43,514 bases of DNA. Source: Hydrurus foetidus. Its lineage: Eukaryota. The stretch spans positions 1 through 43,514 of the forward strand of contig UYFQ01000676.1 of NCBI GenBank assembly GCA_900617105.1, written 5' to 3'. Every line of letters starts with the position of its first letter. The stretch's first letter is position 1. Made by a program: the position numbers and the translations under genes. Below are positions 1 to 43,512 of the stretch, in pieces. The notes beneath the pieces are model-generated. The model worked only from the letters and a program-made list of their open reading frames with translations, was not told where the DNA came from and did no database searches.

Positions 1-261
1 GTGGTCTTGGGCGGGGCCTAGGACGTTGGAGCTAAAAGTGGTGGTCGGTTGATGCAAGCGGTGGGCAAGGGAAGGAAGGATAGGTGGAGTAAACTTGTGT
101 TAGTATCTTACAGTTGAGTATATACAAGTGATGTGTACGCTAAAGTGCATTCACGTCATATGTGGAACTAAGACCTAAAAGTGGAATCTGGGCGTAATAT
201 ACCTATTGTACCTAGTTAACCTAGACACATTGTATCCCCTTAGGAATGCAATAAGGCTACA
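1..261 (-). repeat. 3' LTR of element A (truncated by window edge)
   Basis: Matches 5465-5725 except at positions 107 and 122; begins TGTAGCC on the minus strand. Confidence 0.96.
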
Positions 262-5361: not shown

Positions 5362-5460
5362 TGTCTTCGACTGTCGGAATTACGTGATGGATTAAAAATT
5401 GATGGAGCGGAGAAACGAACTTCTCTCGACGAAAAAACTTTGGTATCGACCAAATATCGA

Positions 5461-5725
5461 TGTTGTGGTCTTGGGCGGGGCCTAGGACGTTGGAGCTAAA
5501 AGTGGTGGTCGGTTGATGCAAGCGGTGGGCAAGGGAAGGAAGGATAGGTGGAGTAAACTTGTGTTAGTATTTTACAGTTGAGTATCTACAAGTGATGTGT
5601 ACGCTAAAGTGCATTCACGTCATATGTGGAACTAAGACCTAAAAGTGGAATCTGGGCGTAATATACCTATTGTACCTAGTTAACCTAGACACATTGTATC
5701 CCCTTAGGAATGCAATAAGGCTACA
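5461..5725 (-). repeat. 5' LTR of element A (265 bp, TG...CA)
   Basis: Repeat of 1-261; minus-strand termini TGTAG...CAACA. The inner boundary is inferred from the CA end because the partner LTR is cut by the window edge. Confidence 0.92.
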
Positions 5726-5735
5726 GTAAAAGCGT

Positions 5736-11437: not shown

Positions 11438-11839
11438 TGTTATAGCTTCCACTATTTCATAGTTTCCACTATATTGCATTCTCACACGTACGTTACATGT
11501 ATGTACGTACATAGTACACATTGCTTGCAGCCACAGGTTTTTCGGTACCAGCTTTTCGGTACCAGTTTTTGGTTTCTCGAATACTTCAACTTGCAACTCT
11601 CGTAGTCAGCTTCTTCGATACACCTCTCACATCTTTAAATCTTTAAACAAAACACCAAACCCAAACCGGCTTCTTTTAGCCAAACATCCTGTCCAGCGAC
11701 TCTCTTGTTGCTGAACGATCTGTGGCCGTTAGCCGCTCATCCTAGTTTGCAGTTCTCGCAAACTGATCAACAGCCCTTGCAGTTGATCCAAGAAACCCGT
11801 CCTCTCGTTTTAGCTTCTGTAAGCTACGTGGACAGCATA
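11438..11839 (+). repeat. 5' LTR of element B (TG...TA)
   Basis: Identical to 18921-19322 by eye. Confidence 0.95.
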
Positions 11840-12047
11840 AAAGTACTTTTCTCGTTTACACAAGAACGATCAGACAAATCTCCAGTTCAGAATAAGACTC
11901 TTCAAGCCAGACGACGGTCGTAGTTTGCGAATCTGGCCAAACAAGAGCTGATACTGTTCGGGTGAGATTCAACTCCTTCAGTGACATTTCACGAAGCAAA
12001 AAATATTTGTACAAAAAATATCCTTCTCTTCTTCGAAGAAGAAATCC

Positions 12048-17568: not shown

Positions 17569-17622
17569 ATATGGAAAGCCCAACACCTGAGGCGAACCCC
17601 TAATAGTAAGTCCTTGTTAGTT

Positions 17623-18585: not shown

Positions 18586-18633
18586 CAACTTCAACTTCAA
18601 CTTCAACTTCAACTTCAACTTCAACTTCAACTT
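18586..18633 (+). repeat. (CAACTT)8 microsatellite
   Basis: Eight perfect copies. Confidence 0.95.
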
Positions 18634-18920: not shown

Positions 18921-19322
18921 TGTTATAGCTTCCACTATTTCATAGTTTCCACTATATTGCATTCTCACACGTACGTTACATGTATGTACGTACATAGTAC
19001 ACATTGCTTGCAGCCACAGGTTTTTCGGTACCAGCTTTTCGGTACCAGTTTTTGGTTTCTCGAATACTTCAACTTGCAACTCTCGTAGTCAGCTTCTTCG
19101 ATACACCTCTCACATCTTTAAATCTTTAAACAAAACACCAAACCCAAACCGGCTTCTTTTAGCCAAACATCCTGTCCAGCGACTCTCTTGTTGCTGAACG
19201 ATCTGTGGCCGTTAGCCGCTCATCCTAGTTTGCAGTTCTCGCAAACTGATCAACAGCCCTTGCAGTTGATCCAAGAAACCCGTCCTCTCGTTTTAGCTTC
19301 TGTAAGCTACGTGGACAGCATA
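18921..19322 (+). repeat. 3' LTR of element B
   Basis: Identical to 11438-11839; preceded by the PPT. Confidence 0.95.
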
Positions 19323-23056: not shown

Positions 23057-25362
23057 ATGGAACAGATTACGGCAGATTACGATAGCGGCACTGAGCAGGA
23101 GCAGGAGCAGGAGCAGGAGGAAGATGATAGACATCCCGCAATATCCTCAGCTTCAAATCATTCCAGCTCGACTTTTTTTTTGCCTCGTACTTCAGCAGCA
23201 ACTCCAAGATCTGGAGTTACTGTACCCGCTGTCAGAGGTGGTGTGAAAAAGGTTTTCAAACACATTGAAATTCAGGCTTCAGACGACGACTCAGCGGATG
23301 AGGTGGACTACGTCCCTCCAAAAAACTACGCTGAGGATAGTGATGACAGTAGCTCCGATGAGTCTGTTGCACCCGAAGTGGGATCGGAAGAAGAAAGAGA
23401 CAAGATGAAAGAAATAGAGAAAAATTTACCGATGGAAAGCAGTCTATGCCGCAAGAGAAAAGTCAAGAAATCAAAAGGAACTTACGCAAGAGCAGCTACA
23501 AAAGTCACGACAAACTTAAAATCTAAGACACCGTTCGATCGCGTCAGAGAATACCCAGATCAACCACTAACTGTAGTGAATGGTAAACTATGCTGCAGGG
23601 TTTGTAAGAATCAGGTTCTAGCGCTGAAGGTATCAAGCATTAAGAATCATATCAGGAATGACACTCACAAACGCAACATGGTGAAGGAGGACAAAACTCA
23701 ACTAACGCTACTAAGCTACAAACAACTTGTTGAAACCAACGAGTCCGAAGAGTCTGCAGCGGGCGCAACTCTCTCTCTGGATGCAAGCGCGTACCGGATG
23801 GCCGTCTGTCATGCCTTCCTGAAATCAGGGACGCTGTTCGCACTTCTCGACAATGGCTCCGAAATCCGCGACCTTCTCGAGGATGGCCATGCAAAATGTC
23901 CGAAGCAGGCTTGCAGTGACATGATTCCCTTGCTGTACAAGAAAGAGTACGAAGAAATTGTGCGAGAATTAGACGACGTGCACTCCTTTTCTATCAGTTC
24001 AGATAGGACTATTAATGTTGCTGAAGCTCTGGCTGTGGTAAGATTGCTGCATTTTCGAAATCAAGTGCCTTCAATCAATTTACTTCCGACTTCAAAATGC
24101 CACAGATTGTGCGGTTCGTCGACAATAAAAAGACCATACAGTAAAGAGTCCTGGCACTGAGTTTCCTCGACGAACTTTTGACAGGGAATTCTTTGGCTGC
24201 CCAAATTATCAAGCAAGTCATGACAATGGCTCATCAAAATCCTATGAAACTCCGCTTCAACACTGTCGACAGCTGTGCCACGAATGGAGTAGCCAAAGAA
24301 GTGATGAGCACAGTTTTTACCCAATGCTGTGATCTTGTGTGTGTCTCACACACATCGAATCTTCCGATGAAGTTGTTTGAGAAAACTACTGATACAGCTC
24401 ACAACGTTCTACAGTGCTGGAGTCAGTGCCTGACTCAAGGATCGAAAGTGCGCGCCGCAACACGCCGTGCGCTTGGAGAAAAAGGCATGAAAAATCATGC
24501 CATCCGGTGGATGGCTGAATACCGGACCGCGGTCCAAGTTGGTGATAATTTCCGATTAATCAAAGACATTATCATCAATGAGGATGTTGGATGTGCCAAT
24601 CTCATGGACACACTCAAAGGGATAATCAATCGCCCCGCCGCCAATGGACTACCTTCTGGTGAACACATCCTCCGTCTGGAGTTAGCTCTTATCAAAGACG
24701 TTGGGGACCCGATTGCCTACTTCTGCAACCATTATGAGGGCGATGGATTTCTTTCCCCGTACGCTTATGACAGCTGGAATAATCTTATCGGGCATTTGAG
24801 AACAGTCGTGAATAGATATGGTGAGGCAGACTTTGTCTCATTTATGCGTTATGTCGCAAGAGAAACAGCTGAAGACGATTTGAATGAGGAGCAGCATTTG
24901 GTTGAAATGACTATCTTAAAAGCGAGAGTCGTTCTCGAAAAGCTGGAGTCCAATACAGTAACGAGATTTCGGGATACCCTCCACGTTCTAAGAGGCTGTC
25001 GCCTTCTGGGTTATGCTTTTATTAAAGAGACTACCTTTGAGGCACTAGAGGAAGGAGTCGATTTCATTCAAAACCTTCCCATAGCGGGGACTTTACTGGA
25101 TGGTCTCCGAGCAGAACTTTAATGCAGAGGATCCGGACGGTTGGTTGTTTTGGAGGCGATATTTCATTAGACTCCCTTTATGGTACAAGGTAGCTGCAGA
25201 AGTGGCATTAGTCATGTGTTCAAGCGCTGCTGTTGAGAGAGTGTTTTCTTGTTAAATTGCTTGTTTACTGATCAGCAGAGAAAGTGCTTAAACGACTACA
25301 AAGAGACTTCTATTATGATACGATACAATGAGAATTTTCGAGAGAAAAAGCAGTATGTGTAG
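23057..25362 (+). pseudogene. hAT transposase with N-terminal C2H2/BED-like finger, one intron (24038-24105), premature stops
   Basis: CRVC..NHI..H finger; SISSD; DSCATN; CVSH; IRW; C-terminal WLFW..LPLWYKVA..SSAAVERVFS dimerisation motif at about 25140-25250. Confidence 0.9.
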
Positions 25363-25646
25363 ATTTGTAATTTTTAAAACTAAAGCTTCCAGTAATTTGA
25401 TTCTTCTTGATCAAGGGTATAGAAGTTATTGGCATCGAATTGCGTAAGCAATATCATAGAAAAATATTTTGTACAGTGCATCTTTCAGTGGCATAATTAC
25501 ACAATAAGTGGCATAATCTAGCGTCAAAAAGCATGGTAGCATTATCAAGTGGCATAATTCCCTCAAAAAAGGGTCAAAATAGACCTATATTATGCTAGCA
25601 TAATTTTAGAATCTAATGGCAGAATCGCGAAATGGCAATCTTCAAT

Positions 25647-25797
25647 TCACGGGAACGCCAAAAAGTTTCCCATATAATTTTTTGCCATAAAATATGCGGA
25701 AAAAGGGGAACTTTCCCATATAAAGGGGTAGTTTAGGGTAAATTTCGGACCTTACCATAAAATAATTATATGGGAAAACTTTTTAGCGTTCCCGTGG
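25647..25797. mobile_element. ~150-bp MITE-like inverted-repeat element
   Basis: TIR CACGGGAACGCYAAAAAGTTT(T)CCCATATAATT at both ends; possible 2-bp AT TSD. Confidence 0.72.
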
Positions 25798-26077
25798 ATT
25801 GTAGCCTTACGGCTGTTGATTAACGTCCGATGGTACAGCAAATAAATCTGATGCAGCAGCTAATAGCGCGGTCACTGATACGATTAGATGCTACTTCCAT
25901 ATATACACACATCGCACTCAATCATCATTTATACAAACATCGTCATTTGAATCAACAGATAGTGAACCACTTCTCGCATAATTTAATTCTAACACTCGTG
26001 AAATACGATCATTCATGTCACCTTTGGTCCGTAATCAAATCTACGGCATCAACAGTTGGAATTAAGAGACATCGACC

Positions 26078-27155
26078 ATGGCCACATTCCCAGTAACTCT
26101 GTTGGACAATCCTCGGCAACAATTCAGATTGTTTTATCGTGCTGCACTTGCCGCATATGGCGCGGCATGCACCACAATATATCAGCACGGCCTGCTCGGC
26201 TACATCGTCACCGACAACCAATGGGAACTTTTGCCCGGTAACAGCGCCCCCAATGCGGATCCTGTTCTCCCCAACGATATCCTTCCTCGCCCCACAATCA
26301 CGATTCCTCCCGCTCCCACTGCAACGGCAAGTGCCCTGACAATTAAAATTTGGGAGCGTAAGCTGGCAGATAATGTGCTGGTCACCGATAGCCTACGAAC
26401 GCTCAAGGCAAACCTCAGCCAGTATTCAGCCGGCAGATTTAGTGACACTCCACGATCCCTTCTTTGGACTACTTAACGTCAGTGCCCTAACTATCATGAC
26501 GCACATCACAGAATTACACGGTACCCTCAATCAGGCCGACTTCGCGCACCTCCGCAGTCAACTATCGCTCACCATGGGCCATAACGAGTCTATTCAAGAC
26601 TTCATCGGAACGCATCAACTTCTACATGATCAGTTTGCTGAGGCACAACAACCTCTCTCGGAGCTCGATAAGTGCCACCACTTCCGCGAAGCAGTTAAGC
26701 CCTTGACACACATCCATCACACCATCGATTCCTACTTGGTTACACATCCCCTAGACGGACAGCAACTATATCGCGAACTGACGACCCATGTTTTTCAACA
26801 AGCGCCTAACTTCACTCCCACGGCAGCGTCAATGGGATATGTGGCCACAGCATCTGCGCCAACAAACGCTCAAACGGAGCCATCATCCGTCGCCACACTC
26901 CTTCAATCTTGAGCATTTGCCGCCCTCCTCACCGCCGCTATCAAACAGGCCGCTCCCGACCGTAGAAACGGACGAAATCGATCCGCCGCAAAAAAGATCC
27001 CTGCCTCCGACAATCGGCCGTACTGCTTCCATCATGGGTACGACAGCCACCATGGTGTCGACTGCAGATACATGTCGGCCAATGCCTTCTCCTCCGATGA
27101 ACGAGCCGCTACCACGCACGGCACACTCACAGGCGCTTCCAGTAACCGTCTCTGA
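26078..27155 (+). pseudogene. gag: copia gag (one frameshift, one internal stop)
   Basis: ORFs 26078-26476 and 26373-26912, then in frame YCFHHGYDSHHGVDC knuckle, ending TGA at 27153-27155. Confidence 0.8.
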
Positions 27156-28495
27156 CCTGCAGGAACGGCTGGAATGCTTCCATGTTCGCTTCACGCACAG
27201 TGTAACTTAACAAGTACAGCATCTCTATCCGTTCCATCTTCTTTTTGCACCGACACGGGATCCACGAATACGTTGATTCGCGAATCAGATGCCAACCACA
27301 TTCATTTCGACGAGCCAACTCTCTACGTGCTGTTTCCCAATGGCAACACAATCGCCTCCATCGGCTCGTGCCTTATTCACATTCCTAACCTCCCTCACTC
27401 ACTGCTCACTCATGTATTCCGTGACGATGTGCTAAACACGTCACTTCTCTCCATCACCCAACTTTGTCAACTTGGTTGTGTCGCCAACTTCAGTGCCACC
27501 ACCGTCACAGTTACCCACAACACTCACACTGTGTTCCAGGGTACCAAGTCATCGGTAACCAACCTTTGGACAGTTCCCATTCCACACCTAGTCGCCACGT
27601 CAATAGCTCATGCTGCTACTGCACTCACTTCCGACGCTAACTTCGTTCGATTTGTGCATGCGGCACTCGGAAGCCCGTCGCATTCCACGTTTCTCAAAGC
27701 CGTTCGACGCGGATACTTGCACTTGTACCCGCGGCTCACATTCGCTCTCGTATCTGCTCATCCTCCACTTGCTATCGCCACGGCTCAAGGACATCTGGAC
27801 CAACATCGACAAAGCCAGACATCCACTGGAGTCCACGTCAATCTCTTCGATATTGACGACGATGATGATAGCGAGGCTAACCAAGCAAAAAAATCTACCT
27901 CGCCAACAGCGCACCAATCATTAGCATACACTCAAGTCGTACTCATGTCAGACACACTACACTCTGACCTAACTGGCCGTTTCTCCGTTACTGCACATAC
28001 CGGCGCTCAGTACCTATTTGTGTCATACCTAGATGGCTACATACACGTGGAGTCCATGAAGACGCGGCATCACATAGATTATATAACAGCATACAAAAAA
28101 ACGCTCAATTATTTCTCTAAACTTGGTCGCCATCCCGCTTTCCAGCGACTCGACAATGAGACATCTGGTTCGTTAGAGGCGTTTGCTCTTGCAAGCAACA
28201 TCTCCATACAGTACTGCCCCCCTCACACTCATCGATCCCTAAAGGCCGAGCGCGCAATTCGAACTTTCAAGAACCATTTTATTGCAACACTCTGCACAGC
28301 ACCTCCTGATTTCCCACTCCTGCTCTGGAATGAGCTACTGCCGCAAGTTGAGCTCTGTTTCAACCATCTCATTCCCTACAGTCCCAACATATCTGTTTCT
28401 GCATATGCGGGCCTCCACGGCGGAGCTTCAACTTCACAAAGCATCCAATTGCTCCTGCCGGAACGCGCATTCTGATACACGATAAGCCTGCTGTC
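27156..28495 (+). pseudogene. pol: copia pol fragment (protease, GAG-pre-integrase, integrase core)
   Basis: DTGST; FVHAALGSP; HSDLTGRF; RLDNE; KAERAIRTFKNHFIA. Confidence 0.9.
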
Positions 28496-31400
28496 TGCGT
28501 CACGCATACCCAGCCATATGTTATTTGTTTTCTTTAAATTTCGCAGTGTGCGTTGTACACCACCATGTCCGACTATCGTGTTATGGCACGTTGCAATTAG
28601 GTTATATTGCTCGGTCGTCATTGGCTTGTGTGTCAGAATAGCTGCTATTACTCCTGTTTTAGGTAGCATTCTGTTTTTACATAGGCGAGACATTGCGTCA
28701 GCAATTTCATTTTGTTTCCCTGGGATATACCCTATCGTATATTCTAGTTCCTGCAGGGCCATACGCCATCTGCCGACCATCTCGTTTTTATCCTTTTCTA
28801 GGAACGTAAGATTTTTGTGGTCTGTTAGGATTGTGAATTTACGATCTCGCAGCAGTGCGTCGAGATAAGTACAGCAATAATATAGCGCGAAGGCTTCTTT
28901 TTGTATTACTGACCATTTCAGTTGAGTCTTGGTAAGAGACTTGCTGACAAGAGCGACGAGTTGTTTTTCTCCGTCGACTTCTTGATACAAATAGCCGCCG
29001 ATACCGTAATCCGACGCATCGGTCATAAGGGTTATGGGCGCTGTATCGTGTATAAAATATAATAAAGGACTCCTTGCAATTAGATCTTTTATCTTTTGAA
29101 AAGAATTTGCGGCGTCATCTGTCCAGATTAGCATTGATTGCTTTTTCGCGGCGTGATCTATCATTTTATGCAGTGGTGCCACCACGTTGGAGTGATTTGG
29201 TACATGATCCCGAAAATAATTGGTGAGTCCGAGAAACGATCTTAGTTCGGTCGTCTTTCTTGGCATAGGAAAGTCGGTCACACCTCTTATCTTTTTGGAA
29301 CTCATAGTTATACCTTCTTTAGATATTTGCTTACCAACATATTCAACTATTTGCACATTTAGCTTAAGCTTTGCGGCTTTTAGTGAAATGTTCTTTTCTT
29401 CGAGACGTTGAAATACAATTTCTAATCGTTCGCAGAATTGTTCAAATCCATTACCATAAACGATGATGTCGTCGAGGTATACTTCACAGATTTGGTATAT
29501 TAGTCCTAAAAGGACTATTGAGGCCATCATTTCTTGGAAATATGAGGGGGCCCTCTTTGGTCCGAAAGGTAGTCGGGTGAAGTGGTAGATGCCCATAAAT
29601 GTTATGAAAGCGGTATACACACGTGTGCTTAGCGTTAACGGTGCCTGGTGATATCCTGCAGTGAGGTCTATTACACCGAATGTGTCAGCTTTTTGTGAAC
29701 CTAATCTTGCTAACATTTGTTTAATATTAGGGATTGGCCAGCTTGCTGATTCCGTTGCGTCGTTGAGGTGACGATAGTCAATACAGAATCGGTATAAACC
29801 GTCGGGCTTTGCCGCAAGTGTTACTTGCGAGTAGTATGATGCCTCTGATTTGACTATTATACCCTGTTCGAGCATAGTGTCAACTTGTTTTCGGATTTCG
29901 ACCTGTTTTCGTGTAGACGTTGGTCTGGGTGCCACGCGGTTTTTGAAAACTTTCCACTCTGGATCCCGTACGGGTAGCCCAAAGGGAGGAATTCGCGCGG
30001 GCTCTGGTCCGAGTTTGTTGTTGAATAGCTTTATGTGTTTGACACAAATTGCTCTAATTTTTGCTTGTTGTTCAGGGGTACCATCGATCTGTATGAGATC
30101 GATGAGGTACATTTTGTCCTCTGTTGGATTGTCTTGGAAAGGAGCGAAGGTATCTTTCGACTTGTAGTCAATCTCTTCGGGTCCGAAGGGTTGAACCTCT
30201 GGGAGTTCTTCACGCTCCCGGAGTAGAGCAGCAACTAAACCAAGTGTTTGGGCTGGTGCCTTGGATGAGGGAGTAGGAGTAGCTAATTCCGGACTCCTGT
30301 CGGCTGTTACACCTAAATCATTTCGTCGGGGAGGTGACAACAAAACTGCTGCCTCGACCGTAGGGTGCAAAATGAACTCATCGGGATCTAGCCTAGCCGC
30401 TGCCGCAGCTAAGCTAGCGGGACACCCACATGAAAGAGTGCATGTCTTGCTTGTACAAGCACCTCGAGCCACCAGGTCGTCTTGCCATCGACTGTCTGCG
30501 TCTGAGGGTTTTGTCCCCTCCAGGCTAGTTATAACCGGAGGTATGGTTGGATCTGTAATGCTCGTGACTGTGTCCGACTCTGCTTCTAGCAGGAGTGGAA
30601 CGTCCACTTGGTTTATTACCATGTGTGTGGACTGGTCGAGTCTTTGCATTTTTGACATGTGTGTCATTGTCTTGTCTGTTACTATATTTTCCGGATTTTT
30701 GAAGAATTCCGGAATGATTTTAACCAAATTTAATTTTTTAATAGTCTGTAATCCTAAGATAAAGTCGACTTTTGAATCTTCTGCAATTCGCACCGGAAGA
30801 GAAAAAGTGTGTTGAAAAGAGTTCTTTTTAAATGATACAATAATATCAAGCACACGTGTTGATTCAATACATTGGTTGTTTAAACCCGAGCACATCCATA
30901 AGGGAGTGTCTGTTGGGCGCAGGTGGGGTTCGCCTCGTAGGTCCCGGAGGACTCTACGGTTGATTACGTCCCCGACCTGGCATCCGGTGTCGATTTGGGC
31001 GAGCGCGTCGATTCCCTCACTTTGGAGCGTACTTTGAGGACGACGAGGATGAGGAGGAGCTGGCATTGGAGTCTCGGTCGCGGTTGGAGAAATCTCTGTC
31101 GCGGTTGGAGACGTCTTTCTCTTTTTCCGTGTTGCGCGAGTCGTCTTTGCGGCTGGAGTCGCGGTCGCGACTGTCGGAGTGACTGTCGTTGCGATGGTTG
31201 GGCCGGAAGTTTGCGATCGGGTCTGTGGAAGAGATATGTGTACTTGTAAGTAATCCTCTATATTTTCAGGCAGTACTGCGGAAAGTAACATTTGCATGGT
31301 GGGTGTGCTGCGACTTTCGTCGAGGTTTTTTACATGCGTAGCGGTAAGGTGTAACTTACTTTTGCCTTTGTAGTTTGAGCTTGCGTGGGAACCACTTGGC

Positions 31401-31747
31401 TTGTTGCCACGCTCGCTGTTGCGATCGTCTGACTGACGATCGTTGTTGCGGTTGTTGGACTTATTGTTGTTGTTCTTGTTATTGTTGTTGTTTGGGCGGC
31501 GTGGGTCTTGGGTCTTAGGTGGTCCCATGTCCATCTCAACATCGTCGACTGGGTAGACGTACGTCGACGCACCTGGGTAGTTGGTGAGGTGGGTTTTCTC
31601 GTTGTTGACGTAGATGTCGGGTTTAAAGTGGGAATGCCCGATGCGTTTGAAATCCTGCCCAATGGAAGAAGCGTTCCATGTGGCGTGGGAGTTGTTGCAG
31701 TGCGGGTTCATAAAGAGCGGACAATTGTACCGATTATGAGTTGTCAT
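28495..31747 (-). CDS. pol: Gag C-terminus plus pol of element C in one open frame (3'-truncated)
   Basis: ORF 28376-31747: QIDTG, IDLTAGYHQ, LPFG, YLDD, TDASDYG, HNTIVGHGG. The last ~40 codons are copia antisense sequence. Confidence 0.92.
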
Positions 31748-33383
31748 TCCGCACGTGTGACATACGTCTGTTGTTCGGCTAATGCCTTCGTTGTCGGGAC
31801 GACGTTTGGGAATGGTCTTGTATGATGCGGATGGGCCAGTGGACGCGGATGTGGACAGTTGGGTGTCGGGATCTTCTTCAGGGGTAAGCTTGGTGGTGAA
31901 GGTATAGCTTAGTCCCCCATCTTGTCAGCGTCCGTAACTGTCTCGCGTGACGCTTGGAGACAGATGACAAGACGGGCGAGCATTTCCCTGATGTTGTCCT
32001 TTTTCCTTTCTTTGGCTGCCACTTTGGTCAAGTCCATGAAATTTTCAGTGAACTTGTTGCCTGGTGGGAGCTTTTTGTAGAATATCTTGCAGATATCGTC
32101 CTGGCGATCACTATCGATGTTGTCATACTTGTTGTAGAACCCCAGGATAATGTCGCGGAACGCGGCGATGGAAGTGTGTTCCAGTGCACCGTTCAGCCAA
32201 CTGAATTTGAACTGAAATCTCCTCAGTTTGAGGTCGAAGTCGTATGTGGATTGCGTACGTCTGTTAATGAAGTAGATTGTTTTAAGATCTTCTGCCATTT
32301 CTTTCAGAGTGAGCTCACCATCCGGTAATTCCGGCCACGCCATACATTGCGCGGGGGTGTACCCGACGAGCTTCGTGTTTTGCAAGAGTCCATCACGAAT
32401 GGTGTCGAGTGCCTCATCCTCTATCAGCGACTGCCAACCCGCGCTGAAACCAGGTCGGTGTGCCTGTTGGTAGAACAGGCGGGCGGACCCGTCCATGTCC
32501 TTCAACAGTACGTCCCTACCCATGTAGAACGCCTCCTTCATGTTAAAAAGGGAGGTCGTCATGTTTTGGTGACGTGGGATTTGGTTGCGTTGGGGTTGTT
32601 CGATGCCCGCATCTTCTGTTTTGCGTTTGCGTATAGGGTTCTCCACGGCCTTCGGTTTCGAAGCCGGGACCTTTTTCGCTGGTGCTTTAGCAGTGCGTTT
32701 GGCAGGTTTGGCTGTGCTGTTTGAGGGTGGTTGCTCTGGTGTGGGTTTGACTACTCGGGGGAGCGTCTTTTGGCAGGTGGTTTGGCCTCTGCGGGCTTGT
32801 TGGTGTCGAGTTTGGCTGTGAACGGATCTTCGGAGTCGGACGGGACTTGACTACCTTCATCCGATGAGAGTTCGATGTAGTTTTCATCGTCCTCGTCCTC
32901 GTCTTCCTCACCGGTTTCATCCTCCCCGTCCTCCTTGTCTGATTCAGGGTGGGAGTCCGATGTCACTTTGCCGTCGGCTGTTTGATCGTCCTTATTGCCG
33001 TCTCCCTCCTCGTCATTCTGTTGGGTCGGATTGCCACCTTGGTTTTCCTCCTTGTCGATGTTGTCGAGGTTGTCCGGTGATAAGGTGGCGGGTTCACTAT
33101 GTGAAACGACCTCGCCCATGATCGACATGAATTCGGAAAGACTTTGATCATCGTCTGCTTTTTCCTTTTCTTCTGTCTCGCCCTCCAATATGGAGAGACG
33201 TTTGCGCTCTGCCATGCGCGTGTTATGCCTCTCGGCTTGTTTTGCCTTGTGGGCTTTTTGTTCGTCTTCGATGCGGCTTTCAGTGTCTGTAGCCTTGATG
33301 CTTTTTGACTGAGCGCCGCCGTCGAAGCGGCGATATTTGCCTCGCGCCGCTTGGCGACTTGTTTGAGACGTTCCTTTTCCCAT
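31748..33383 (-). pseudogene. gag: gag of element C (frameshifted)
   Basis: ORFs 32751-33383 and 31909-32646, then knuckle CHTCGMTTHNRYNC at about 31762-31721. Confidence 0.82.
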
Positions 33384-34019
33384 TTGAGGGTCAGGCGTTC
33401 ATCGTCTAGGAGCGAAGAGCTGAAGATGATTGGGTTAGAGCTCTGTCTCTTGTCTTTTTGGCTCTTTGTCATCGTGAATTTTGGTCGGGACTTATTTGGA
33501 TGGAACTGAGCGTCTTCGACAGCGACGGAACTCGGACGCGGTGATGTAGGGAAATGAGGAGTAGGTTCGTCGAGGATGGAGACTGGTAGGTTAAGAGTGT
33601 GGCAGTAGAAGTCAGGGGGATTGGGTTACTTTCGTGCGATTTCGGGAGGAAATCGCGTCGAAAGTTGGGGGCGTTGGACGGCTTCGTGGGCAACGAAGTT
33701 GGGCGTGCGCGTTGGAGCTTTCGTTTTAGAAACGATTTGTTTGGTTTCACTTGCTTGCAAGTTACTCTCTTTTGTCGGCCTTCGTTTTCTGAAGAGCTCG
33801 AGGAGATGTCGTTAAAAGTCGTCGGAACGAACTTCTAAACGAGGGCGTTCTGGAGGCTGTCGATTTAACAGAGCCTTTGTAGTGTCGTTAGACGTTGTTT
33901 TCACTTAAAAAAGTTACTCGCTTTTGTTTGGCACGACTGTTTGACGGTCGCGGCAAGATTTTTCTGTTGATTTTGGAAACTGGTCTCTGAAGGAGATCCT
34001 AGTTGGTTCCAAATACCGG

Positions 34020-34239
34020 TATTGTGGCCTTGCTAGGTCTCAGGGCAACGGGAGCGGAGGTCTGAGGGCGCGTGGACAAAGGGAAGATGCTGTGGGGCTA
34101 AAGCTATGATAGCAATGTGGTTAGCTTACAGGTAAACACAGCAGATATCATGGCAATGAATCGTGTGGATCGGATCGTCCTCGATCCGAACCGGACGTAC
34201 GCCTGTACCCTTACAGCCCGTACGGGTGTTCGGGGCACA
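34020..34239 (-). repeat. Inferred 5' LTR of element C (TG...TA)
   Basis: Starts TGTGCCCC exactly where the integrase of D breaks (LQHF|). Its end CCACAATA parallels the element A LTR end CCACAACA. No partner LTR in the window. Confidence 0.7.
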
Positions 34240-37140
34240 GAAGTGTTGGAGGAGTGCCCTACATGCCGAGGCGGCTGTGGCGTCCGGGCACCAAAAAAGC
34301 TCCGTCCATCTTGAGAAGGTGTCAATGATGACAAGAACGTGTGAGTCGTCCGGGAAGGGTCCGATGAAGTCCATGTTGATGGTATCGAACGGGTTGTACG
34401 TCGAAGAGGCGAAGTGGTGGAGCTGGATGGGAATGCGGACCGCGCTCATCTTCTGGCAGCAAGGGCAGTGACCTAGCGATGCGAGCTTGTCCAACGTCCT
34501 AGCGTTGCCTCCGTGTCCAATCATGCCGTTGTGGCATTGCTCTATCCACTCCAAATTTTCGTCAGTCGCTGACGGGCACACCTCGAGGGCCGCCATCAGG
34601 CGGACTGGTCCATCCATCACCACCGGAGTGTAGTCAACCGCCAGCTCAATGAGGTTGGGGCACAGCCTGGATAATGAGTCCGCCATCTCATTGTCTTTGC
34701 CTGGAACGAACTTCACCTCGAAGTCCAGCTCTTGAAGCGCAATGAACCACCGAGATACCATGGAACTTGGACTTTGCTTCATGAACGTGATGTTCTGGTG
34801 ATCCGTGTGTATCGTGAACTTGCGGTCTCTGATCAGCGAGTCAAACTGTTGGCAACAGTGAAAGATGGCGTATGCCTCCTTCTGCATTGTGGACCAGTTG
34901 ATCTGGGTCGAGGAGAGAGATTTGCTGACAAAGGCGATGGGTCGCCACACCTGACCCACAACTTGGTAAAGAACTCCAATGATGCCGTAGTCGGACGCAT
35001 CCGTGTACAACCGGATAGGCGAGTCGTCGTCCAGGAAGTACATTAGGAGGCATCTTGAAATCGCCAGCTTGATCGCATGGAAAGCCTCCACTCCTGCCGG
35101 CGCCCATATGGGGGCTTCCTTCTTTCTGGCTTTGTGGTCAATCATGTTTTGTAGGGGCCTAACTATGTCGGAGTGATTTGGTACAAATCCCCGAAAGTAG
35201 TTCGCCAGTCCGAGCAGGGAGCGCAGTGCGGTCATAGTCTTGGGTCTTGGAAATTTGGGGACATTCTCTATCTTGGGTGCCGACATGGATAGGCCATCTT
35301 TAGATACCACTCTCCCTACGTACTCGATACTTGCCATTCCGAAACGGCACTTCTTGGCCTTGAGTAAGAGTCCGCGGTCTTTGAAGCGTTGGAGGACCTC
35401 CCGCAGTCTCTCCACGAACTGGTCTTCATTGGAGGCGTAGACGATGCAATCATCCAGGTACATCTCACACGAGACATATAGGAGACCTTGTAACACCTTA
35501 GAGACCATCTGCTCTTGGAAGTACGAGGGCGCCCGCTTGGGGCCGAAAGGTAGTCGGGTGAAGTGGTATATACCCGCAAAGCAGAGGAACGCGGTGTAGA
35601 TCCGATGATCAGGGTGGATGGGTGCCTGATGGTAACCGCTGGTGAGGTCCATCACTCCAAAAATCTCGGGCTTGCAGTTACCGATGCGCTCGAAGAGTCC
35701 CTTGATGTTCGGCAAGGGCCAACTGGCGGGCTCGATGCACGCGTTAAGGCCTCTGAAATCCATGCACACCCTAACCTTATCCGGAGTCTGCTGTACCACC
35801 ACGGGGTGACTGTAGTATGACGCGGTGGATTTCTCCACGATCCCTTTCTTGATCATCTCGTTTATCGACTTGTGTAGCTCCAGCTCCTTTTTTGGTGTAG
35901 TGTGACGTAAGGGTCCGCGGTTCTTGCTGGTCTCCCATTCGGACTTCTTTACATCGAACGTGAAGGGGTCTATGTCAGCCGGTTCCGCTGCCAGCTCGTC
36001 GCTGAAGATTCCAGGGAACTCAGAGCATACCGCCTTGCATTTAGCTTGGAGGCTAGCAGTACCCTCGAAACCGATCTGCTTCATATATGCTAATTTGTCT
36101 TTGGGTCCTGGGTCCGTCGCCATGTCGTCCAAGAGGAACGGGCCAAACGCGTCTGTTTTCTCACTATCAATCTCGTCATTAGAGATACTGATACCACTGG
36201 GCTTATCGCAGACAGTGTCGAGAGCAGGGCCTTCGATAACCAAAGGTGGAGCCGGAGGGGTGTGATTAAGGTCGACACCAGGACGCGGTGTATCATCCTT
36301 CCGCGTGACTAAAGTCGCAATGACGCTGGCTAAAAGTCTGCGACTTCCGGGTTGCCTTTGACTAGTGTCCGGAGCTGGAGTCGGATGAGCGCATGGCGTA
36401 GGAACATTGGTCTCAGGCGGTGGGGCGGCCTGGATCACTTGGGGTGCCCCTACTTGAGCCGGAGCTGTAGGGGAACCTGTCCCCAAAGGGATTGCCTGCG
36501 GGCCATAGCTTGCTAGCTTTTCCTCCGCCTTCTTTTTGTTCTTTGCTGCTTTCCGTTTCTGAGACGCAGCGCGTTTCTCATACTTGAGTTTATTGTCTGG
36601 TGCCGGCGAAGCTCGCAGGTCTTCTGGAGTTGTCTCAATGAGAATCGTGTCCTTAGTCTTCTTGTCAGCTGCAGTTTTGCGGTTGTAAGCCTTGGACGGG
36701 CCTGACTTCGCGCCAGCAGGGACAGGGGGCGGTTTCAGAAGTAGACCATAGGTGGGTGGAGCAGACTCGGTCGGGAAACCCAAGGCAGTTGGTGTGAGAA
36801 TGTTGAACTTATATTTATTAAGGGAAAGACGTCCTATGATCAGGTCTACGGCGGAGTCAGGGTTGACTCTGGCCTGGAGGTACACCGTGTGGATCTTGTT
36901 GTCTTTACAAAGAAAAGTTACGCCTATGTCGACTACTGCAGTGCTAACAAAACAGTCGCTGTTGAGACCCGAGCACACAGTAATAGGCTCGTCAGACTTG
37001 TACATGTGTGCCGAAGCACCTAGGCGAATCGTGAAAGCTTCAGAAATAAAATCTCCGGCCACGGCTCCGGTATCTAAAAATGCTAGAGCCTTGATCTCTC
37101 TGGTTTGCACAACCGTGGGGTCCGTGCACCCTTTAGGCTG
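34240..37140 (-). pseudogene. pol: pol of element D (PR-RT-RH-partial IN)
   Basis: FLDTGA, MDLTSGYHQ, LPFG, YLDD, TDASDYG, shortened HHCC region, MDFIGP. Confidence 0.92.
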
Positions 37141-37178
37141 TCAGGCAAAAAGAGTAACAGAGAGGCAATCTTTAGTAG

Positions 37179-38210
37179 TCAGAAGATGGTCGACATTGTC
37201 CACATACAATGGCATGACAGGCGGCATCTCGAACGATGAGGGTGGGGTGAGCCATATTTGGTCACTTTCATCTGTGCTCGCCTTGCATTGTTGAGCACCT
37301 TGATAAAGCGGACGAGGCAGGACCTCCATGTCTCCTCATCCTTGAGGTTCTCTACCAGCTTGAGCTGCAGGTAGTCAGTCTGGATCTGGCTTCCTGGGGG
37401 GAAGCGTTTCTCCACTAACTTGACTAAGTCCCGCTTTTGCTCCAACGTCATCTGGGGGTGTTCCATCGCAAACGTGCGAGCCACGGAGGTGTACTCACGC
37501 ATTGTCTGGACTTCCAGATTGGGATCGTCGTAACAGTACTGGAAGGCCACCTTCTCGAATGCTTGGGTCAGGGTCTCCCCTGTCTCCGGTCGCATCCCGA
37601 AGTACCTGACGACGAGTTCTGCAATCGTCAGGATGGGTAGCTCTTTCCAGTTCGCAAGCTGTGCTGGTGAGAGGTGCTTGATTGTGTCGTCGATCATGAT
37701 CCTGATGTCCAAGGCGTCCACCGCTTCCTCTCTCATGACTTGGTTCAGCTCGATCCCGTCTCCCTGACTGTTGGCCTGCTGAAGGAACTCCTTGGCTGCT
37801 TGAGGCGTAATCTGAGAATCCTCGATTATGAAGAGCGGCTTCTGCAACTGAAGAGCTCTGTTGAGTTTCTTCTTGTTGAACTGCTCTGATCCTCCAGGCA
37901 TCTGAGTGCTGCCGTACGGGAGCATGCAATTGTCAGATATGAACGATGCGTTCATATCCATGAGATCATCATCTATGATTCTCTTCGGAAAAGTTTTTCC
38001 GAACTGTCGTATCCATCGTCTCCATCTCGCGGTGTCGGCTGCACCGATTGTGATCTCATTGGTGGACGATGAGCCACGGTTGACGTCGACGAAGACGACG
38101 ATGAAGACGAAGACGGGCCGGAAACAGGCGTCGGATTCATCGCTCGGATCGCGTCCTAAAACTTTCTTAAAAATCCTTTTAAAACCTCTAAGATCTTTCA
38201 AATCCTGCAA
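37179..38210 (-). pseudogene. gag: gag of element D (nucleocapsid apparently deleted)
   Basis: Similar to gag of E (AAKEFLQQ vs AAREFYEH; LVVRYF vs LVLRYF); no CCHC knuckle. Confidence 0.75.
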
Positions 38211-38697
38211 AAATTTTGCGAGGGGTTTCCCTACAGCGTCTCTTTAAACGCTGTCTTCGACGGACTTTAGGAAATTAGAATTAAAAGGTAGATACGAAAA
38301 ATAATTAAAGGTGCTGCAAAAGTCTTCCGAAAAATGAAAGAACAGATCTCCACGAAGAAAGCTCCTCCAACGTTCCACAGTAGCTATAAATTTCCAGCTA
38401 GTGAAGGCTGCTGCTCCGGCTCCGTTTTTTAGAATTCAGATAAGGGATACTTATGTTCTATCGAATCGGAATTGACTTCGATTCTTCAGCGAGATAAAAT
38501 ATCAAGCTGGGACGCTCGGGCAACTTGGCGCGGCGACTTGAAACTTGAGGGGCCTTGATTGGGCCTCTTGAAAACGACTTTGAAGGCTTCCTTGGACGTG
38601 GTTGGGACCGCGTGGACAGGAAGTCTAGCTAAGCAGAAATGGATTGCAGAAGATGGGAGTTGCAGTAGAAATTAGAGGGAAAATGGGCAAGTAGCGC

Positions 38698-38876
38698 TAC
38701 TGTGGTCCGAAGGGGGTTGGAAAGAGGAAGGTTTTGGCAAGAAGAGCTCTCTTAGAGTTACAACGGGTTGGAAGCTGTCTATGGGATAAACAACTGAAAG
38801 GTTGCACTGAAAGGTTAGTGATGTCAGGATTGACATCTCAAACTACCATACATCTACAAGCACGTATGTACCGTCA
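38698..38876 (-). repeat. Inferred 5' LTR of element D
   Basis: Begins TGACGG where the pol of E stops; ends CCACAGTA like the LTR ends of A and C. Confidence 0.55.
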
Positions 38877-40001
38877 GAGGGTCCAGGGGTCCGGAGACCC
38901 CGGAACCACTACACCACTGCCCGTCCATAGCGCAGATGGACCCCACTCTTCTCCCACTGTTGGAATACGGTGGGTGCTCGAGTGACCTTCGTCTCCATTG
39001 TCAGCAGTGTCGGTAATCAGGCGACACTGTGTACAAGGACTACGCGATCCGACAGCGTCACTATGATGACAACAGACGTCGGTATGTGAATCTGTACCGA
39101 TGTCGGACTCTGCCCTTAAGGGAAGTAGACCGATGTCATCTGGGCTATGTGACGTTTCGACTAACGTAGGGTCAAAGCCCATACGTGTCGGTGTCAGCAC
39201 AAACAAGTTGTGTTGATTCAGGGACTTGCGTCCGATGATCAGATCCAGTTGTGCAAAAGGATTAACACTAAAAGTGATATAGATAGTGTGCTTAATTTTA
39301 CTATCATCGAGAAAAGTAAGGCCTAAATCGACTAAGGTATTACACCTATAACAAGTGCCATCGAGACCGCTACAAACGTTAAGTGCGGTTGAAGACACAT
39401 AACAATGAGCAAGTGCATCGAGTGAGACAAGCAGTGATTTGGAAACAAAATCGCCGGCCATGCTACCCGTGTCTAGGAGCGCGTGCGCTGTAAGACTAAG
39501 TCCCGCGGACTGAGATGCTGACGCGGCTGTGGTGAGGGCGTGTCCCTGCAAGGTTCTTCGTTCATCCTTGAACACCAATAATGAGAGAAGTTCATTAGGA
39601 TTCGTTGAATGTACCGCTGCTACAATCGAGTCAGACGGTAAGGTACCTATGAGCGGTATTTTCGACACGTCGGTCTGGTTATGGCACGCCGCCAGCACCT
39701 CCGAGATTAGCGGCAGGGAGGTAGGGGGTGGCTGTTACACGTGAAGACATGTGGGAAGAACATCGTTAATGTTATCCGATAGAGCATTGGAAGGGGTTGA
39801 GACCTCCAATGAATCAGTTATGAGTATATCAGAGTTGAGCATACATAAAGATGGTGGTGTATCGGTAGGGCTACATGTGTTAGCCGCATGTATCGCCACT
39901 ACCAATGCATCCACCACCGTGGTATGAGTTAACGTACCATCGTATGGGGCTGGGAGTGTTTGGCCACAGTTGGCTGCGTTACTGGAGGTGTTGTCGGCCA
40001 A
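38877..40001 (-). pseudogene. pol: Gag-PR linker and protease of element E
   Basis: ORFs 39735-40001 and 38874-39698 are in one frame, separated by one TAA; aspartic protease motifs present. Confidence 0.85.
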
Positions 40002-40126
40002 CGTGGTGTTTTGTCCACCTGAACCGTATCGCGGTTTGTTGGTGGAGCTTCGGTTAAAGTTCCCCCCATGATTGGGGTTCCCTTGGTATTTTTTCTCATG
40101 ACCACCTCCTGGGGGATGGGCTTTAT

Positions 40127-43006
40127 TCAGTACCTCGTCAGTGAGTTTGTTTCACGACGGGGTATCTGGATTTTGAAGCGGTCCAGACCAGGGATGCGGT
40201 CGTGGAGAGGATAGGTCGCATGACCGTATTGTACCCACGTGCGACCCATGTTGGAGTGGTCCCACGGAACATTGTGGTTGGTGTTTGAATCCACCATCCA
40301 CATGTATGGGCAGTTTTTCAGCAGATGGTCGCTGTGTCCACACGAGTTACACTGTCGGAGTGGTGTTGTTGGCAGTGCCAGCGGTGGTAATGCTGGGAGT
40401 GCCGCACCAACCAACAGGGTTTTGGGGTTAGTCGTGAGAGATAACCCATACGGATTTTGTCTCGCGGGGTGACAGTAAATGTCGTTGGGGTCCCCGAAAG
40501 CCGCTACGTGTAGCTGGAGCTGTCGTACCGCATTGACTTGGGAGAAGAAGCGACGCATCGCAAATTCCCAATCGTCCACGTCATGCGGGTTGACGCGCTT
40601 ATGCTCTTTGTATTTGGCGGTGATGGCACCGTTAAGAGGCATCTTTTTCTCTAAAATGAGAGTGAGTGCAGCATGGTCGGAGGTGCTGAGTGGGCCATGT
40701 ACTTGTACATGATTCTCAACCACCTCACGAAACTGCGTCATGCAGCGCATCTCAATCTCACTTTTGTTGTAACAAAAGGCGAGATGTACTTCGGAGAAAT
40801 GCTCCGCCAGTGACTGCCCGAGTTGCGTGTCCGCGCGAAAGTAGCGCAGGACTAAGTGCGCAACTTGAGGAACCGTCAAAGTTTGGAGCCACACTTTACG
40901 TGTCTCCTCGGAGTATGGATAATCTTGATCCGTATGGATCTGATCATCAATGCATCTGACTGCTTTAGTCGAGATGACTTGACCAACATCGTAGTTGTTG
41001 GTCCAGCGCTGGGAGTGCTCATAAAACTCCCGCGCTGCATCCTGTCCAATAATGCCGGACGCATTCACGTTGAGAACGTAAAGTACCGTTTGCAGTGCAA
41101 TAGCGGATATAGGTCGGGAACCATCATCCACCGCACGTCCACCCACTACAAGCGCTGTAGGGATCGCACTGGGTGTGGCAACCTGTACCGCGGATACGTT
41201 GATCGGTGACGTATGATCATGTATATACCGTGGTATCGGCGGTCGTACTGGGTGCGCTGCATTGGGGTCGAGACCGCCCCCTGCAGCTCGGAACGCTGCC
41301 GTTTGCAGCTCGTAATCGATGATGCGATCCGTTGCGGGTAGCACCACGATGTCTGGAGGATCCAGGGGAAGTGGGGTAGGAACCCGAATTTCCCGTGGGA
41401 TTTTCTGGATGACTCGTTGGGGTTGGGGGTTATAATCGGAGTCACCAGTAAACGTACGTACGTACGTAGGACATTCGGGTGGCCCTGGTGGGGAGGCTTG
41501 TCGCTTGCGTGACGTTGGACCCTCTTGAGGGGGTAACGCGCGTTTGCGAGGAGCATCCGCTGTGCGGGTTACTGTCCCCACATCTTCGGGGATGCGCGTA
41601 TCGCGACTCTCGAGCAATCTAGAGTTGTCGGTCACGCGTATGGACGCACGTGGAGTCGTACGACTCTCAGTCGCACGTTCGTCCTCATATTGGTTTTCGT
41701 TGTACTGACGACTGTCAGTATTACGATTGCCCCTGTTCGAGGTATCATGTTGGCGACGATCGTCCCCTTGATGATTTTCCCTGGGGGGACTGTCGTCGTA
41801 ACCCTGTGGGGGTTCTCTACGACTTCTCCTGTTGGAGTTGTTATCTCCCTGACGGAAGTTGTCATTGTTGTCGTCGCGAAAATTCTCGAAATTGCGAGTA
41901 TTCGTAGAATAATTCCCCCTATTGGGGTTGTCATTACGACGAGAATCCTCGTAATTACGATTATCCCTTTGGGGGTTATCGTTGGGACGTTGGAAGGTGT
42001 CTCGGCGATTATCCCTGTTAGGGTTGTCGTCTTGTTGACGATTATCGCTATCGCGACGCCCGTCATTCTGAAGTGGGTTGTCGTCGTTGCGACGATTGTC
42101 GCTGTTGCGTCGATCGTCATATTGACGTCTGTTATCGTCATTGAATTGGGTGTTGTACCCGCGACGTCCCTCGTTGTCGTAATCATGACTGTCGTCATTC
42201 TGACGGTAATTGTCGTTATAACGACGATTATCGCTTAGACGATGATTGTCGTTGCGGCGATCATCGTTATATTGACGTCCATCGTTATCGTGACGATTGT
42301 CGTTACGGTGCTCCGTACCGTATGAAGGGCCCGTATTACGGTTGTCCCTGGGAGGGTTGGAGTCATCGTAGTTACGACGATTGTCGTTGTGACCTTGATT
42401 GTCATCATTAAAACGCCGATAATCGTTGTTGTTTCGATTATCGTCATTGTATTGACGCTGGTTAGAATCGTTGCGTTGACGGTTATCGTAACGATTAACG
42501 TCACCACCGTCTTCGCTACCACTCTGTTGATTCGGAGTAGGCGGATAGTCGCCCGTTGCATCTCCGTCGAAGGGGTTATTTCGACGAGTTGAGTTGTCAT
42601 AACTGTCGAGGCCCTGACGACGGAGATATCGTTGCGGGGGTGAATCCATACGGCGGCGAGGGTTTGTATCGCCGTCGTCATCATCCCGGTCAGGGTCGCT
42701 GTTGTGGCGTGTCTGTTGACGGTTTGCGTCTGACGAACGCAACGTGACATTGTCTTGTTGTCGCGTTGTGTGAACGTCGTCGTCGTCGTCGTTATGACGA
42801 TTAGGCGGCGCCTGATTGGAACTGTTGGTAGGTCCCAGCATTGTTACTGGGAATACCGGTCGATCAGTTCCATCAGACGCAGCTACTGCTGTCGGCGCTG
42901 TTGGTGTCGACTGAGTTTTTGAAACTGTCGTCGCTGCCGGAACTACTTGAGTAGTTAATTCGGCGAGCGACGGCGAGATCTCCGAAGAGTCATCGGATAA
43001 CGGCAT
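40127..43006 (-). CDS. gag: gag of element E (959 aa) with a long N/D/R low-complexity N-terminus
   Basis: Long ORF, CCHC knuckle, capsid-region similarity to gag of D. Confidence 0.88.
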   Translation of the reverse strand: MPLSDDSSEISPSLAELTTQVVPAATTVSKTQSTPTAPTAVAASDGTDRPVFPVTMLGPTNSSNQAPPNRHNDDDDDVHTTRQQDNVTLRSSDANRQQTRHNSDPDRDDDDGDTNPRRRMDSPPQRYLRRQGLDSYDNSTRRNNPFDGDATGDYPPTPNQQSGSEDGGDVNRYDNRQRNDSNQRQYNDDNRNNNDYRRFNDDNQGHNDNRRNYDDSNPPRDNRNTGPSYGTEHRNDNRHDNDGRQYNDDRRNDNHRLSDNRRYNDNYRQNDDSHDYDNEGRRGYNTQFNDDNRRQYDDRRNSDNRRNDDNPLQNDGRRDSDNRQQDDNPNRDNRRDTFQRPNDNPQRDNRNYEDSRRNDNPNRGNYSTNTRNFENFRDDNNDNFRQGDNNSNRRSRREPPQGYDDSPPRENHQGDDRRQHDTSNRGNRNTDSRQYNENQYEDERATESRTTPRASIRVTDNSRLLESRDTRIPEDVGTVTRTADAPRKRALPPQEGPTSRKRQASPPGPPECPTYVRTFTGDSDYNPQPQRVIQKIPREIRVPTPLPLDPPDIVVLPATDRIIDYELQTAAFRAAGGGLDPNAAHPVRPPIPRYIHDHTSPINVSAVQVATPSAIPTALVVGGRAVDDGSRPISAIALQTVLYVLNVNASGIIGQDAAREFYEHSQRWTNNYDVGQVISTKAVRCIDDQIHTDQDYPYSEETRKVWLQTLTVPQVAHLVLRYFRADTQLGQSLAEHFSEVHLAFCYNKSEIEMRCMTQFREVVENHVQVHGPLSTSDHAALTLILEKKMPLNGAITAKYKEHKRVNPHDVDDWEFAMRRFFSQVNAVRQLQLHVAAFGDPNDIYCHPARQNPYGLSLTTNPKTLLVGAALPALPPLALPTTPLRQCNSCGHSDHLLKNCPYMWMVDSNTNHNVPWDHSNMGRTWVQYGHATYPLHDRIPGLDRFKIQIPRRETNSLTRY

Positions 43007-43194
43007 CGTTAAATGACTTATGTCTTGACAATTTTAAGTAGCGAGAGTCGCCAAAAAATTGCAAGGGCTTCGCCTCGTGCCGTTTGGATGAAAATCAAAC
43101 AGACGATTAGGCGAAGCAAAATAAGTCAAGTAAGTTCTGGGCGGATGAATGAATCAATCCGCACAAAATGAGCCGGGATTGGGAGACTTGCTCG

Positions 43195-43512
43195 ATCAAG
43201 CAAGCTTGAAGCGAGAGATGGGCAGAAGTTAACTGAGTTAACTCTGCACAATGATATGGGATTGCCGAGATGAAACTCGAGCAACCACAAGATAGTCAAG
43301 TATCGGGAGATAAATCTCAATCCGAGTGACTAAGTCTACGGCGTGGAAGCCAAAGCTATCCACGGACGTCAATCAAGCAAGCTTGAAGCGAGAGATGGGC
43401 AGAAGTTAACTGAGTTAACTCTGCACAATGATATGGGATTGCCGAGATGAAACTCGAGCAACCACAAGATAGTCAAGTATCGGGAGATAAATCTCAATCC
43501 GAGTGACTAAGT
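43195..43512. repeat. Direct repeat of 141 bp (43195-43335 and 43372-43512; period 177) upstream of gag E
   Basis: Two identical copies by eye; may continue beyond the window. Confidence 0.9.

Follow-up and report, generated by a model that had tools for sequence, protein, structure and literature searches.

Self-complementary sites stand at the primer-binding position, directly behind the 5' LTR, in Ty3/gypsy chromoviruses

Four Ty3/gypsy elements carry a 12-nt palindrome directly at the inner end of their 5' long terminal repeat (LTR), at the place of the primer-binding site. Three of the palindromes are perfect and one is nearly so. They share one register and occupy all four visible junctions, which is far beyond chance. 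In dozens of related elements from freshwater metagenomes the letters of the site change while its self-complementarity is kept, and structural selection on the palindromic site is well supported by this comparison. The observation is confirmed and generalised here. A priming mechanism can be inferred from the sequences, and it is presented below in conditional terms.

The window, by which we mean the whole 43.5-kb stretch of DNA analysed, is filled by Ty3/gypsy LTR retrotransposons nested in one another. The Pfam domains RVT_1, RT_RNaseH and rve follow in this order in elements A (minus strand), B (plus) and D (minus). Element C (minus) shows RVT_1 and RNase H and is truncated thereafter. A chromodomain is present in B (Pfam Chromo, E 3e-6), and this region matches the C-terminal part of A (tblastn, E 4e-13). 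C and D are truncated upstream of the chromodomain position; PF00385 is present in the relatives P0002-P0004. The LTRs have traits of the chromovirus group, with TGT...CACA ends in A, C and D and polypurine tracts in A and B. The LTR of B ends in TA, not CA, and its target-site duplication is 4 bp. By domain order, chromodomain and LTR traits, A to D are Ty3/gypsy chromoviruses. The RT-RNase H proteins of A, C and D are 47-51% identical to one another. B is a separate lineage, with about 25-30% protein identity to these three.

Element C sits in the integrase of D, and D sits in a further element, E:

38914-43033, minus strand: element E, with gag and only the beginning of pol; its 5' junction lies beyond the window

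The region 28376-43033 is a minus-strand chain of nested, 3'-truncated elements. E is broken at 38913/38914 by D, and the D integrase at 34239/34240 by C. C stops after RNase H near 28376, and the window contains none of the 3' parts of these three elements. The leader of E, upstream of gag, has a tandem repeat of two 99% identical copies with a start-to-start spacing of 177 nt (43192-43512). Element A differs in composition (GC 0.37-0.38, against 0.45-0.54 in the other elements). Its frames lie in at least four pieces despite LTRs that match at 259 of 261 positions, and its palindrome is the sole imperfect one. Long open frames that had no significant Pfam match are found at 10133-11605, 19329-20090, 22955-25122 and 27156-28475, in the parts of the window from 5729 to 11437 and from 19327 to 28375. 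B is inserted between the first two of them. The only Pfam hit among these frames is zf-C2H2_12 on 22955-24160, below the cut-off. A TGTAGCC at 25800-26100 was considered as the start of a further LTR and rejected, since it continues into an open reading frame.

The LTRs of the four elements have the following limits:

11438..11839, plus strand: 5' LTR of B, 402 nt, TGTTATAGC...GACAGCATA; target-site duplication TGTT at 11434-11437
18921..19322, plus strand: 3' LTR of B, identical to the 5' LTR at 402 of 402 positions; polypurine tract GAAAGGGGTGG before it, TGTT (19323-19326) after it
5464..5725, minus strand: 5' LTR of A, 262 nt, TGTAGCC...GACCACA
1..261, minus strand: 3' LTR of A, incomplete at the window start; it matches the 5' LTR at 259 of 261 positions
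262-281, minus strand: polypurine tract of A, AAAAAAGGAAGAAGGGGTAG; the TGTAGCC of the LTR adjoins it directly
34023..34239, minus strand: 5' LTR of C, 217 nt, TGTGCCCC...GGCCACA, in the integrase gene of D
38701..38913, minus strand: 5' LTR of D, 213 nt, TGTAGTGG...GGACCACA, in element E

B is a recent, polymorphic insertion with exactly known ends, because its LTRs are identical, TGTT flanks it on both sides, and contigs from two runs (X5, X1) contain the empty site, joining 11437 to about 19361. The element (11434-19326) is intact, with long open gag and pol frames, and is a candidate active element. Between its pol stop and its 3' LTR lie about 1.35 kb of low-GC sequence (17569-18920, notably 18372-18643). 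There a short segment (about 18590-18636) reaches 5-10 times the word depth of the adjoining sequence in each of four runs, and numerous contigs diverge to either side of it; it is a short repeat that recurs in many other places. The outer LTR ends of C and D coincide with the frame breaks in the D integrase and in E. Contigs free of C (X1, X6) continue past 34240. An X6 contig departs from the window, with a loose end, at 38913, where D begins. The inner LTR edges of C and D were not among the loose ends listed. At the C LTR, the word depth rises about 6-fold between the bin ending at 34021 and the bin starting at 34022. Word depth in run X5, summed over the LTRs of C and D (34022-34365 and 38838-38990), exceeds the depth in the internal region of D by a factor of 10-100, with values such as 500,233 and 214,510 compared with roughly 5,000-20,000. 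This suggests that the C and D families have very many LTR copies or solo LTRs.

The palindromes lie at the junction of 5' LTR and leader:

34012..34023, minus strand: palindrome of C, perfect, 12 nt, AATACCGGTATT; its first A, at 34023, also ends the 5' LTR
38690..38701, minus strand: palindrome of D, perfect, 12 nt, AGTAGCGCTACT; begins at the last A of the LTR
5453..5464, minus strand: palindrome of A, 12 nt with one C/A mismatch, AACATCGATATT; begins at the last A of the LTR
11839..11850, plus strand: palindrome of B, perfect, 12 nt, AAAAGTACTTTT; begins at the last A of the LTR
34009..34027, minus strand: extended symmetry around the palindrome of C, CCA-C-[palindrome]-TGG; the bulged base is the C of the CA that ends the LTR
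5448..5470, minus strand: extended symmetry in A, GACCA-C-[palindrome]-TGGTC

An earlier reading of this DNA, made from the sequence only, had reported 12-bp palindromes at these four junctions. All are present at the positions it gave, perfect in C, D and B and with one mismatch in A. It had also described a 4-nt overlap of palindrome and LTR. This needs correction: the overlap is 1 nt, the terminal A, and it is exact in B and in three related families. The lack of a TGG-starting tRNA site against the LTR holds. In A and C a TGG does occur directly 3' of the palindrome and is the pairing partner of CCA in the LTR end CCA-C-A. The window as a whole contains 26 perfect 12-nt palindromes, a frequency of about 6 per 10,000 positions, against 10.0 +/- 3.2 in 100 first-order Markov simulations. 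This excess extends beyond the LTR junctions.

Protein relatives of D came from metagenome sources only. An RT-RNase H alignment built from D, C and A served to scan metagenome contigs. It matched 559 stretches; 447 of them were confirmed to be relatives, and we retained 78 loci. The 78 loci form 46 RT clusters (at least 80% nucleotide identity), and the site was recorded in 35 of these. Among the 11 clusters that have no recorded site, 6 have contigs too short for the junction. Five RT clusters show no perfect palindrome in the 3011-3346 nt downstream of the RT match, a length with which the contigs may or may not reach the junction.

Many of the contigs read pol-LTR-leader-gag, through tandem copies or assembly collapse, which puts the next junction 2.7-3.4 kb downstream of where the RT match starts. 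We took the region from +2.7 to +3.4 kb as an unbiased test region. There we counted the loci with a perfect palindrome starting at an A preceded by C, and 200 mononucleotide shuffles served as the control. The counts were:

Downstream, +2.7 to +3.4 kb, 30 loci: at least 12 nt in 16 (shuffle mean 0.68, maximum 3); at least 10 nt in 20 (mean 2.51, maximum 7)
Upstream, 8 loci: at least 12 nt in 6 (shuffle mean 0.45, maximum 3); at least 10 nt in 6 (mean 1.51, maximum 5)

So the proposal that such palindromes exceed chance across families is borne out by the related loci. On the opposite strand, the counts at 12 nt or more and at 10 nt or more were 3 and 9 for the downstream regions and 3 and 4 for the upstream regions. 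Ten downstream loci were missed by the count, and seven of them have a perfect palindrome in a shifted register:

L009, L011, L013 and L017: CA, then a perfect 14-mer
L010 and L015: TTA, then a perfect 10-mer
L070: TT precedes a perfect 12-mer
L002: a true 3' LTR/flank junction
L058: a decayed copy with a broken site
L050: no class assigned

Many loci have a polypurine tract and TGT 190-310 nt upstream of the site, a distance that fits the LTR lengths in the window. The end of the LTR can be fixed where a 3' LTR, or a solo LTR with foreign flank, is compared with a 5' junction. Beside B, this was the case four times. The sequences diverge right after the A that starts the palindrome in L024 against L023, in L012 against L025 and L026, and between the two LTRs of L040. 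L002 shares two further letters with L003 and L006, which chance allows, and its end is ambiguous by 2 nt. LTR pairs inside the metagenome contigs were mostly useless for boundaries: many contigs are of the form internal-LTR-internal or overlap at their ends by 84-127 nt. Such internal-LTR-internal or whole-unit repeats occur in L015, L018, L019, L043, L044, L046 and others, with a period of 5190 in L046. These contigs may be assembly collapse or real tandem arrays with one common LTR. For Tf1, tandem arrays are attributed to integrase-independent annealing at the primer site in the part of the source cited here (PMC11042837).

Relatives of B were absent from viral_contigs, where the A2 query likewise gave no match. 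Three were found in genome_contigs, on contigs of bacterial MAG records that are too short upstream for the junction. Of the 24 runs listed, 20 contain B itself, and they come from 9 studies. Most are metagenomes of freshwater and sediment; three carry the label of a single organism. Pieces of B are also present in RNA-library contigs, which is no proof of transcription. One such contig (X20) stops at the final base of the B palindrome, 11850, and was considered as an RNA end. It was rejected: the next contig starts at 11821 and overlaps by 30 nt, an ordinary break of the assembly graph.

The letters of the site vary strongly and its pairing does not. The 12-nt register comprises 22 distinct sites, and 21 of them are perfect. 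By position, the pairs are:

Pair 1-12: always A:T
Pair 2-11: A:T, G:C or T:A
Pairs 5-8 and 6-7: all four Watson-Crick types

Conservation is fairly good in the outer letters (A-A/G-T...A-T/C-T). Between close relatives whose flanks are nearly identical, the sites differ by two changes that compensate each other: L025 has AATATCGATATT and L026 AATATTAATATT, L022 has AATACGCGTATT and L053 AATACTAGTATT, and L009 has TAATATCGATATTA and L017 TAATACTAGTATTA. A single RT cluster (at least 80% nucleotide identity) has three different perfect palindromes. Through compensating changes, the site is maintained across at least 35 RT clusters. The sequence-only reading had suggested selection on structure and not on letters, and the distinct sites and the double changes agree with it.

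Within a hairpin, adjacent and next-to-adjacent bases cannot pair. The two central pairs of the site are always complementary although they could not form in a hairpin, so the selected pairing is, as judged from this covariation, one between two molecules. The flanks add at least 3 bp of symmetry around the bulged C of the CA end at 7 of 42 distinct junctions, compared with 4.4% in mismatched partners. Further into the leader, about 30-50 nt after the palindrome, L025, L034 and L040 have a hairpin with a covarying stem (TTGGT-TTGCT-ACCAA, TTGCT-TAGCT-AGCAA and TTCCT-TAGCT-AGGAA). A short stem-loop stands within about 10 nt after the site at most junctions. These leader hairpins may be packaging or initiation structures.

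We compared the site with the known models of priming. A Tf1-type complement in the own LTR was not found among 39 elements, where the best score was 7.90/12 in the own LTR and 7.92 in the LTRs of other elements. Likewise, a second arm of the GalEa type (CHSeq2) was not found in 44 elements: the score was 6.30/10 in the own 80 nt downstream and 6.29 in other elements. The predicted folds contain no conserved intramolecular structure around the site and no consistent hairpin, and the predicted pairing probability is 0.45 for the site against 0.51 for its flanks. A dimer initiation hairpin of the retroviral type was rejected, as the palindrome is not presented in a loop and the site occupies the position of the primer site. 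TGG directly follows the LTR end at 0 of the 50 junctions listed. ARAGORN, run on the window and on 46 of the 78 loci, reported no tRNA genes, and the window gave no Rfam match. The homoduplex is predicted to be stable, with energies of -14.9 kcal/mol for C, -19.5 for D and -10.2 for B. The weak ones are AAUAUUAAUAUU (-6.8 kcal/mol) and the imperfect site of A (-5.9 kcal/mol).

The reading that we prefer is that the palindrome is the primer-binding site and would pair with the same site of a second element RNA, which would then be cut and used as primer. We hold this tentatively, at a little under an even chance. It builds on what is seen at the site: its position, its 1-nt overlap with the LTR, its complementarity through the centre, and the absence of a Tf1-type partner and of a downstream arm. 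In reverse transcription, U5 ends where minus-strand synthesis starts. The 3' end of the primer should thus pair right beside the LTR end, on the 5' half of the palindrome, and the primer should then end in the letters of the 3' half of that same palindrome. Since a single stretch of DNA contains four different sites, the element's own RNA would be the only one known to bear the complement of each.

By this mechanism, two element RNAs would pair through a 12-bp duplex of site with site. A cut of the RNase H type at the 3' edge of the duplex, as in Tf1, would leave R-U5-site with a free 3' end. For Tf1 itself, the source describes an 11-bp RNA duplex and an RNase H cut that frees the primer (PMC7175516, in the part cited). 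The cut R-U5-site, still paired on the partner RNA, would copy the U5 and R of the partner. The site would be copied twice, once from the primer and once from the template. In HIV-1, one ribonucleotide of the primer remains on the minus strand and gets copied. A ribonucleotide retained and copied in this way would explain the terminal A:U pair and the 1-nt overlap. A single change would then give a doubly mismatched site, and its repair could either restore the old palindrome or make a new one. This is speculation, and as speculation it would account for the fast, family-specific turnover of the sites by creation and repair of mismatches. A primer as long as R-U5-site would pose a problem, so far unsolved, for the plus-strand transfer.

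The main rival is that the palindrome serves only as a dimer-linkage or packaging signal, comparable to the retroviral dimer initiation site, and that a separate primer starts reverse transcription. We regard this as unlikely. It shares the pairing of two molecules but leaves the site at the primer position unexplained. In its favour, complementarity through the centre indicates two-molecule pairing here too, family-specific sites would keep co-resident families apart (four different ones are in the window), and behind the site stand small, conserved hairpins whose stems covary, as would be expected of a packaging leader. Palindromes near or within the primer-binding region dimerise retroviruses and Ty1 according to the portions of the two sources used (PMC8096270, PMC5454406). 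However, the site adjoins the LTR with a 1-nt overlap wherever the end is fixed, so any primer must pair with its 5' half. No other conserved candidate primer site lies behind it, the letters downstream vary by family, and the site is not displayed in a hairpin loop. The central pairs also bear on snap-back priming in cis, in which the cut 5' fragment of one RNA would refold at the palindrome. Its fit to the position and to the terminal A:U pair equals that of pairing in trans, and the bulged-C extension at 7 of the 42 junctions (4.4% in mismatched partners) would lengthen the stem. Nevertheless, the two central pairs are always complementary, with four pair types, and are unpairable in a hairpin. 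A 12-nt hairpin would hold just 3-4 A:U pairs, and the predicted folds are inconsistent. This makes snap-back priming very unlikely.

It is still less probable that each family uses a host RNA (a tRNA, a tRNA fragment or a small RNA) and that the symmetry is incidental. Internal parts of tRNAs do prime some copia elements, as the cited parts of two reports describe (PMC10886601, PMC6317226). Here TGG adjoins no LTR, and a separate host RNA ending in a palindrome half would be required for each of the 22 sites, of which the window alone has four. Compensating double changes in close relatives would be unexpected for a site that tracks a host RNA. The same variation speaks against a DNA site for a dimeric protein of the element or host, such as a regulator or a factor acting on unintegrated DNA. 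Dimers typically bind palindromes, and the outer letters are fairly conserved, but the centre varies freely and stays symmetric, which is the signature of base pairing and not of base recognition. A protein site also gives no reason for the fixed register at the LTR end, and we give it hardly any credence. The sequence-only reading had proposed either tRNA-independent priming or RNA dimerisation. Selection for self-complementarity at the place of the primer-binding site and the misfit of the Tf1 type both stand, and a different mechanism is a reasonable suggestion; a role in priming or in dimerisation is what we infer from them.

A full-text literature search, with subscription journals and Repbase reports outside its scope, returned no paper that describes a palindrome as the primer site of gypsy elements. 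The hairpin site of the fungal copia element GalEa is the only precedent found in the literature searched. In the part of the report cited here, its authors fitted it to neither Tf1 priming nor a dimer initiation site (PMC5445492). Like the present elements, GalEa has no tRNA primer site, and a short stretch directly behind its 5' LTR forms a palindrome once the LTR's final A is counted (PMC5445492, same part). Unlike the elements here, which are Ty3/gypsy chromoviruses by domain order, GalEa is a Ty1/copia element. Its site has two dominant 10-mers in the text cited, whereas the site here is mostly 12 nt (10-16) and highly variable. Moreover, that text places a CHSeq2 arm 12-41 nt downstream in GalEa, and the present elements have no such arm. 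One locus (L052, 6308-6317) has the site ACTAATTAGT in a gypsy element; its letters coincide with one of the two main forms given there for GalEa (the final A of the LTR plus CTAATTAGT).

Tf1/sushi elements are similar as chromodomain gypsy elements that have no tRNA site, and their site adjoins the LTR with a primer duplex of similar length, about 11 bp, according to the passages used (PMC7175516). If the present site primes, a primer from the element's own RNA would be a further likeness. The Tf1 site, as that source describes it, pairs with the first 11 nt of the transcript. In contrast, the site here is self-complementary and has no complement in the LTR, so that the partner would be a second molecule. 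Self-priming of the Tf1/sushi type is described for the plant Tcn1 and TAR lineages in the cited part of a further source (PMC6317226). The retroviral dimer initiation site is also a short self-complementary sequence of the 5' leader that varies between lineages and stays palindromic, as far as the cited parts of two sources show (PMC5445492, PMC8096270). These place the retroviral site in a hairpin loop beside the tRNA primer site, whereas here it replaces the primer site and has no loop. SM-Tcn1 of Selaginella is likewise a chromovirus lacking tRNA or Tf1-type priming signals in the portion of its report cited (PMC2864245). It differs in its conserved thymine-rich leader, and no palindrome is reported in that portion (PMC2864245).

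The gypsy elements with a self-complementary site at the primer place form a group that is large, diverse and active at present. The site is a new annotation signal for elements that are now reported with 'no PBS found'. The mode of minus-strand priming is a defining step of every LTR retroelement, and to our knowledge only the host tRNA and the Tf1 cis self-primer are established for it. A third start of reverse transcription may exist beside these two, in which two genomic RNAs would pair through a palindromic primer-binding site and one of them, once cut, would be extended on its partner. Such a mechanism would of itself produce mismatched sites, whose repair could give new perfect palindromes, and it would be common to protist chromoviruses and, as a variant, to the fungal GalEa copia elements. 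On the comparisons made here, we consider this wider proposal somewhat less likely than not. If it is true, the elements would be independent of host tRNAs, and hence of defences based on tRNA fragments. Genome dimerisation would also be tied directly to priming, which would give a simple account of the family-specific sites.
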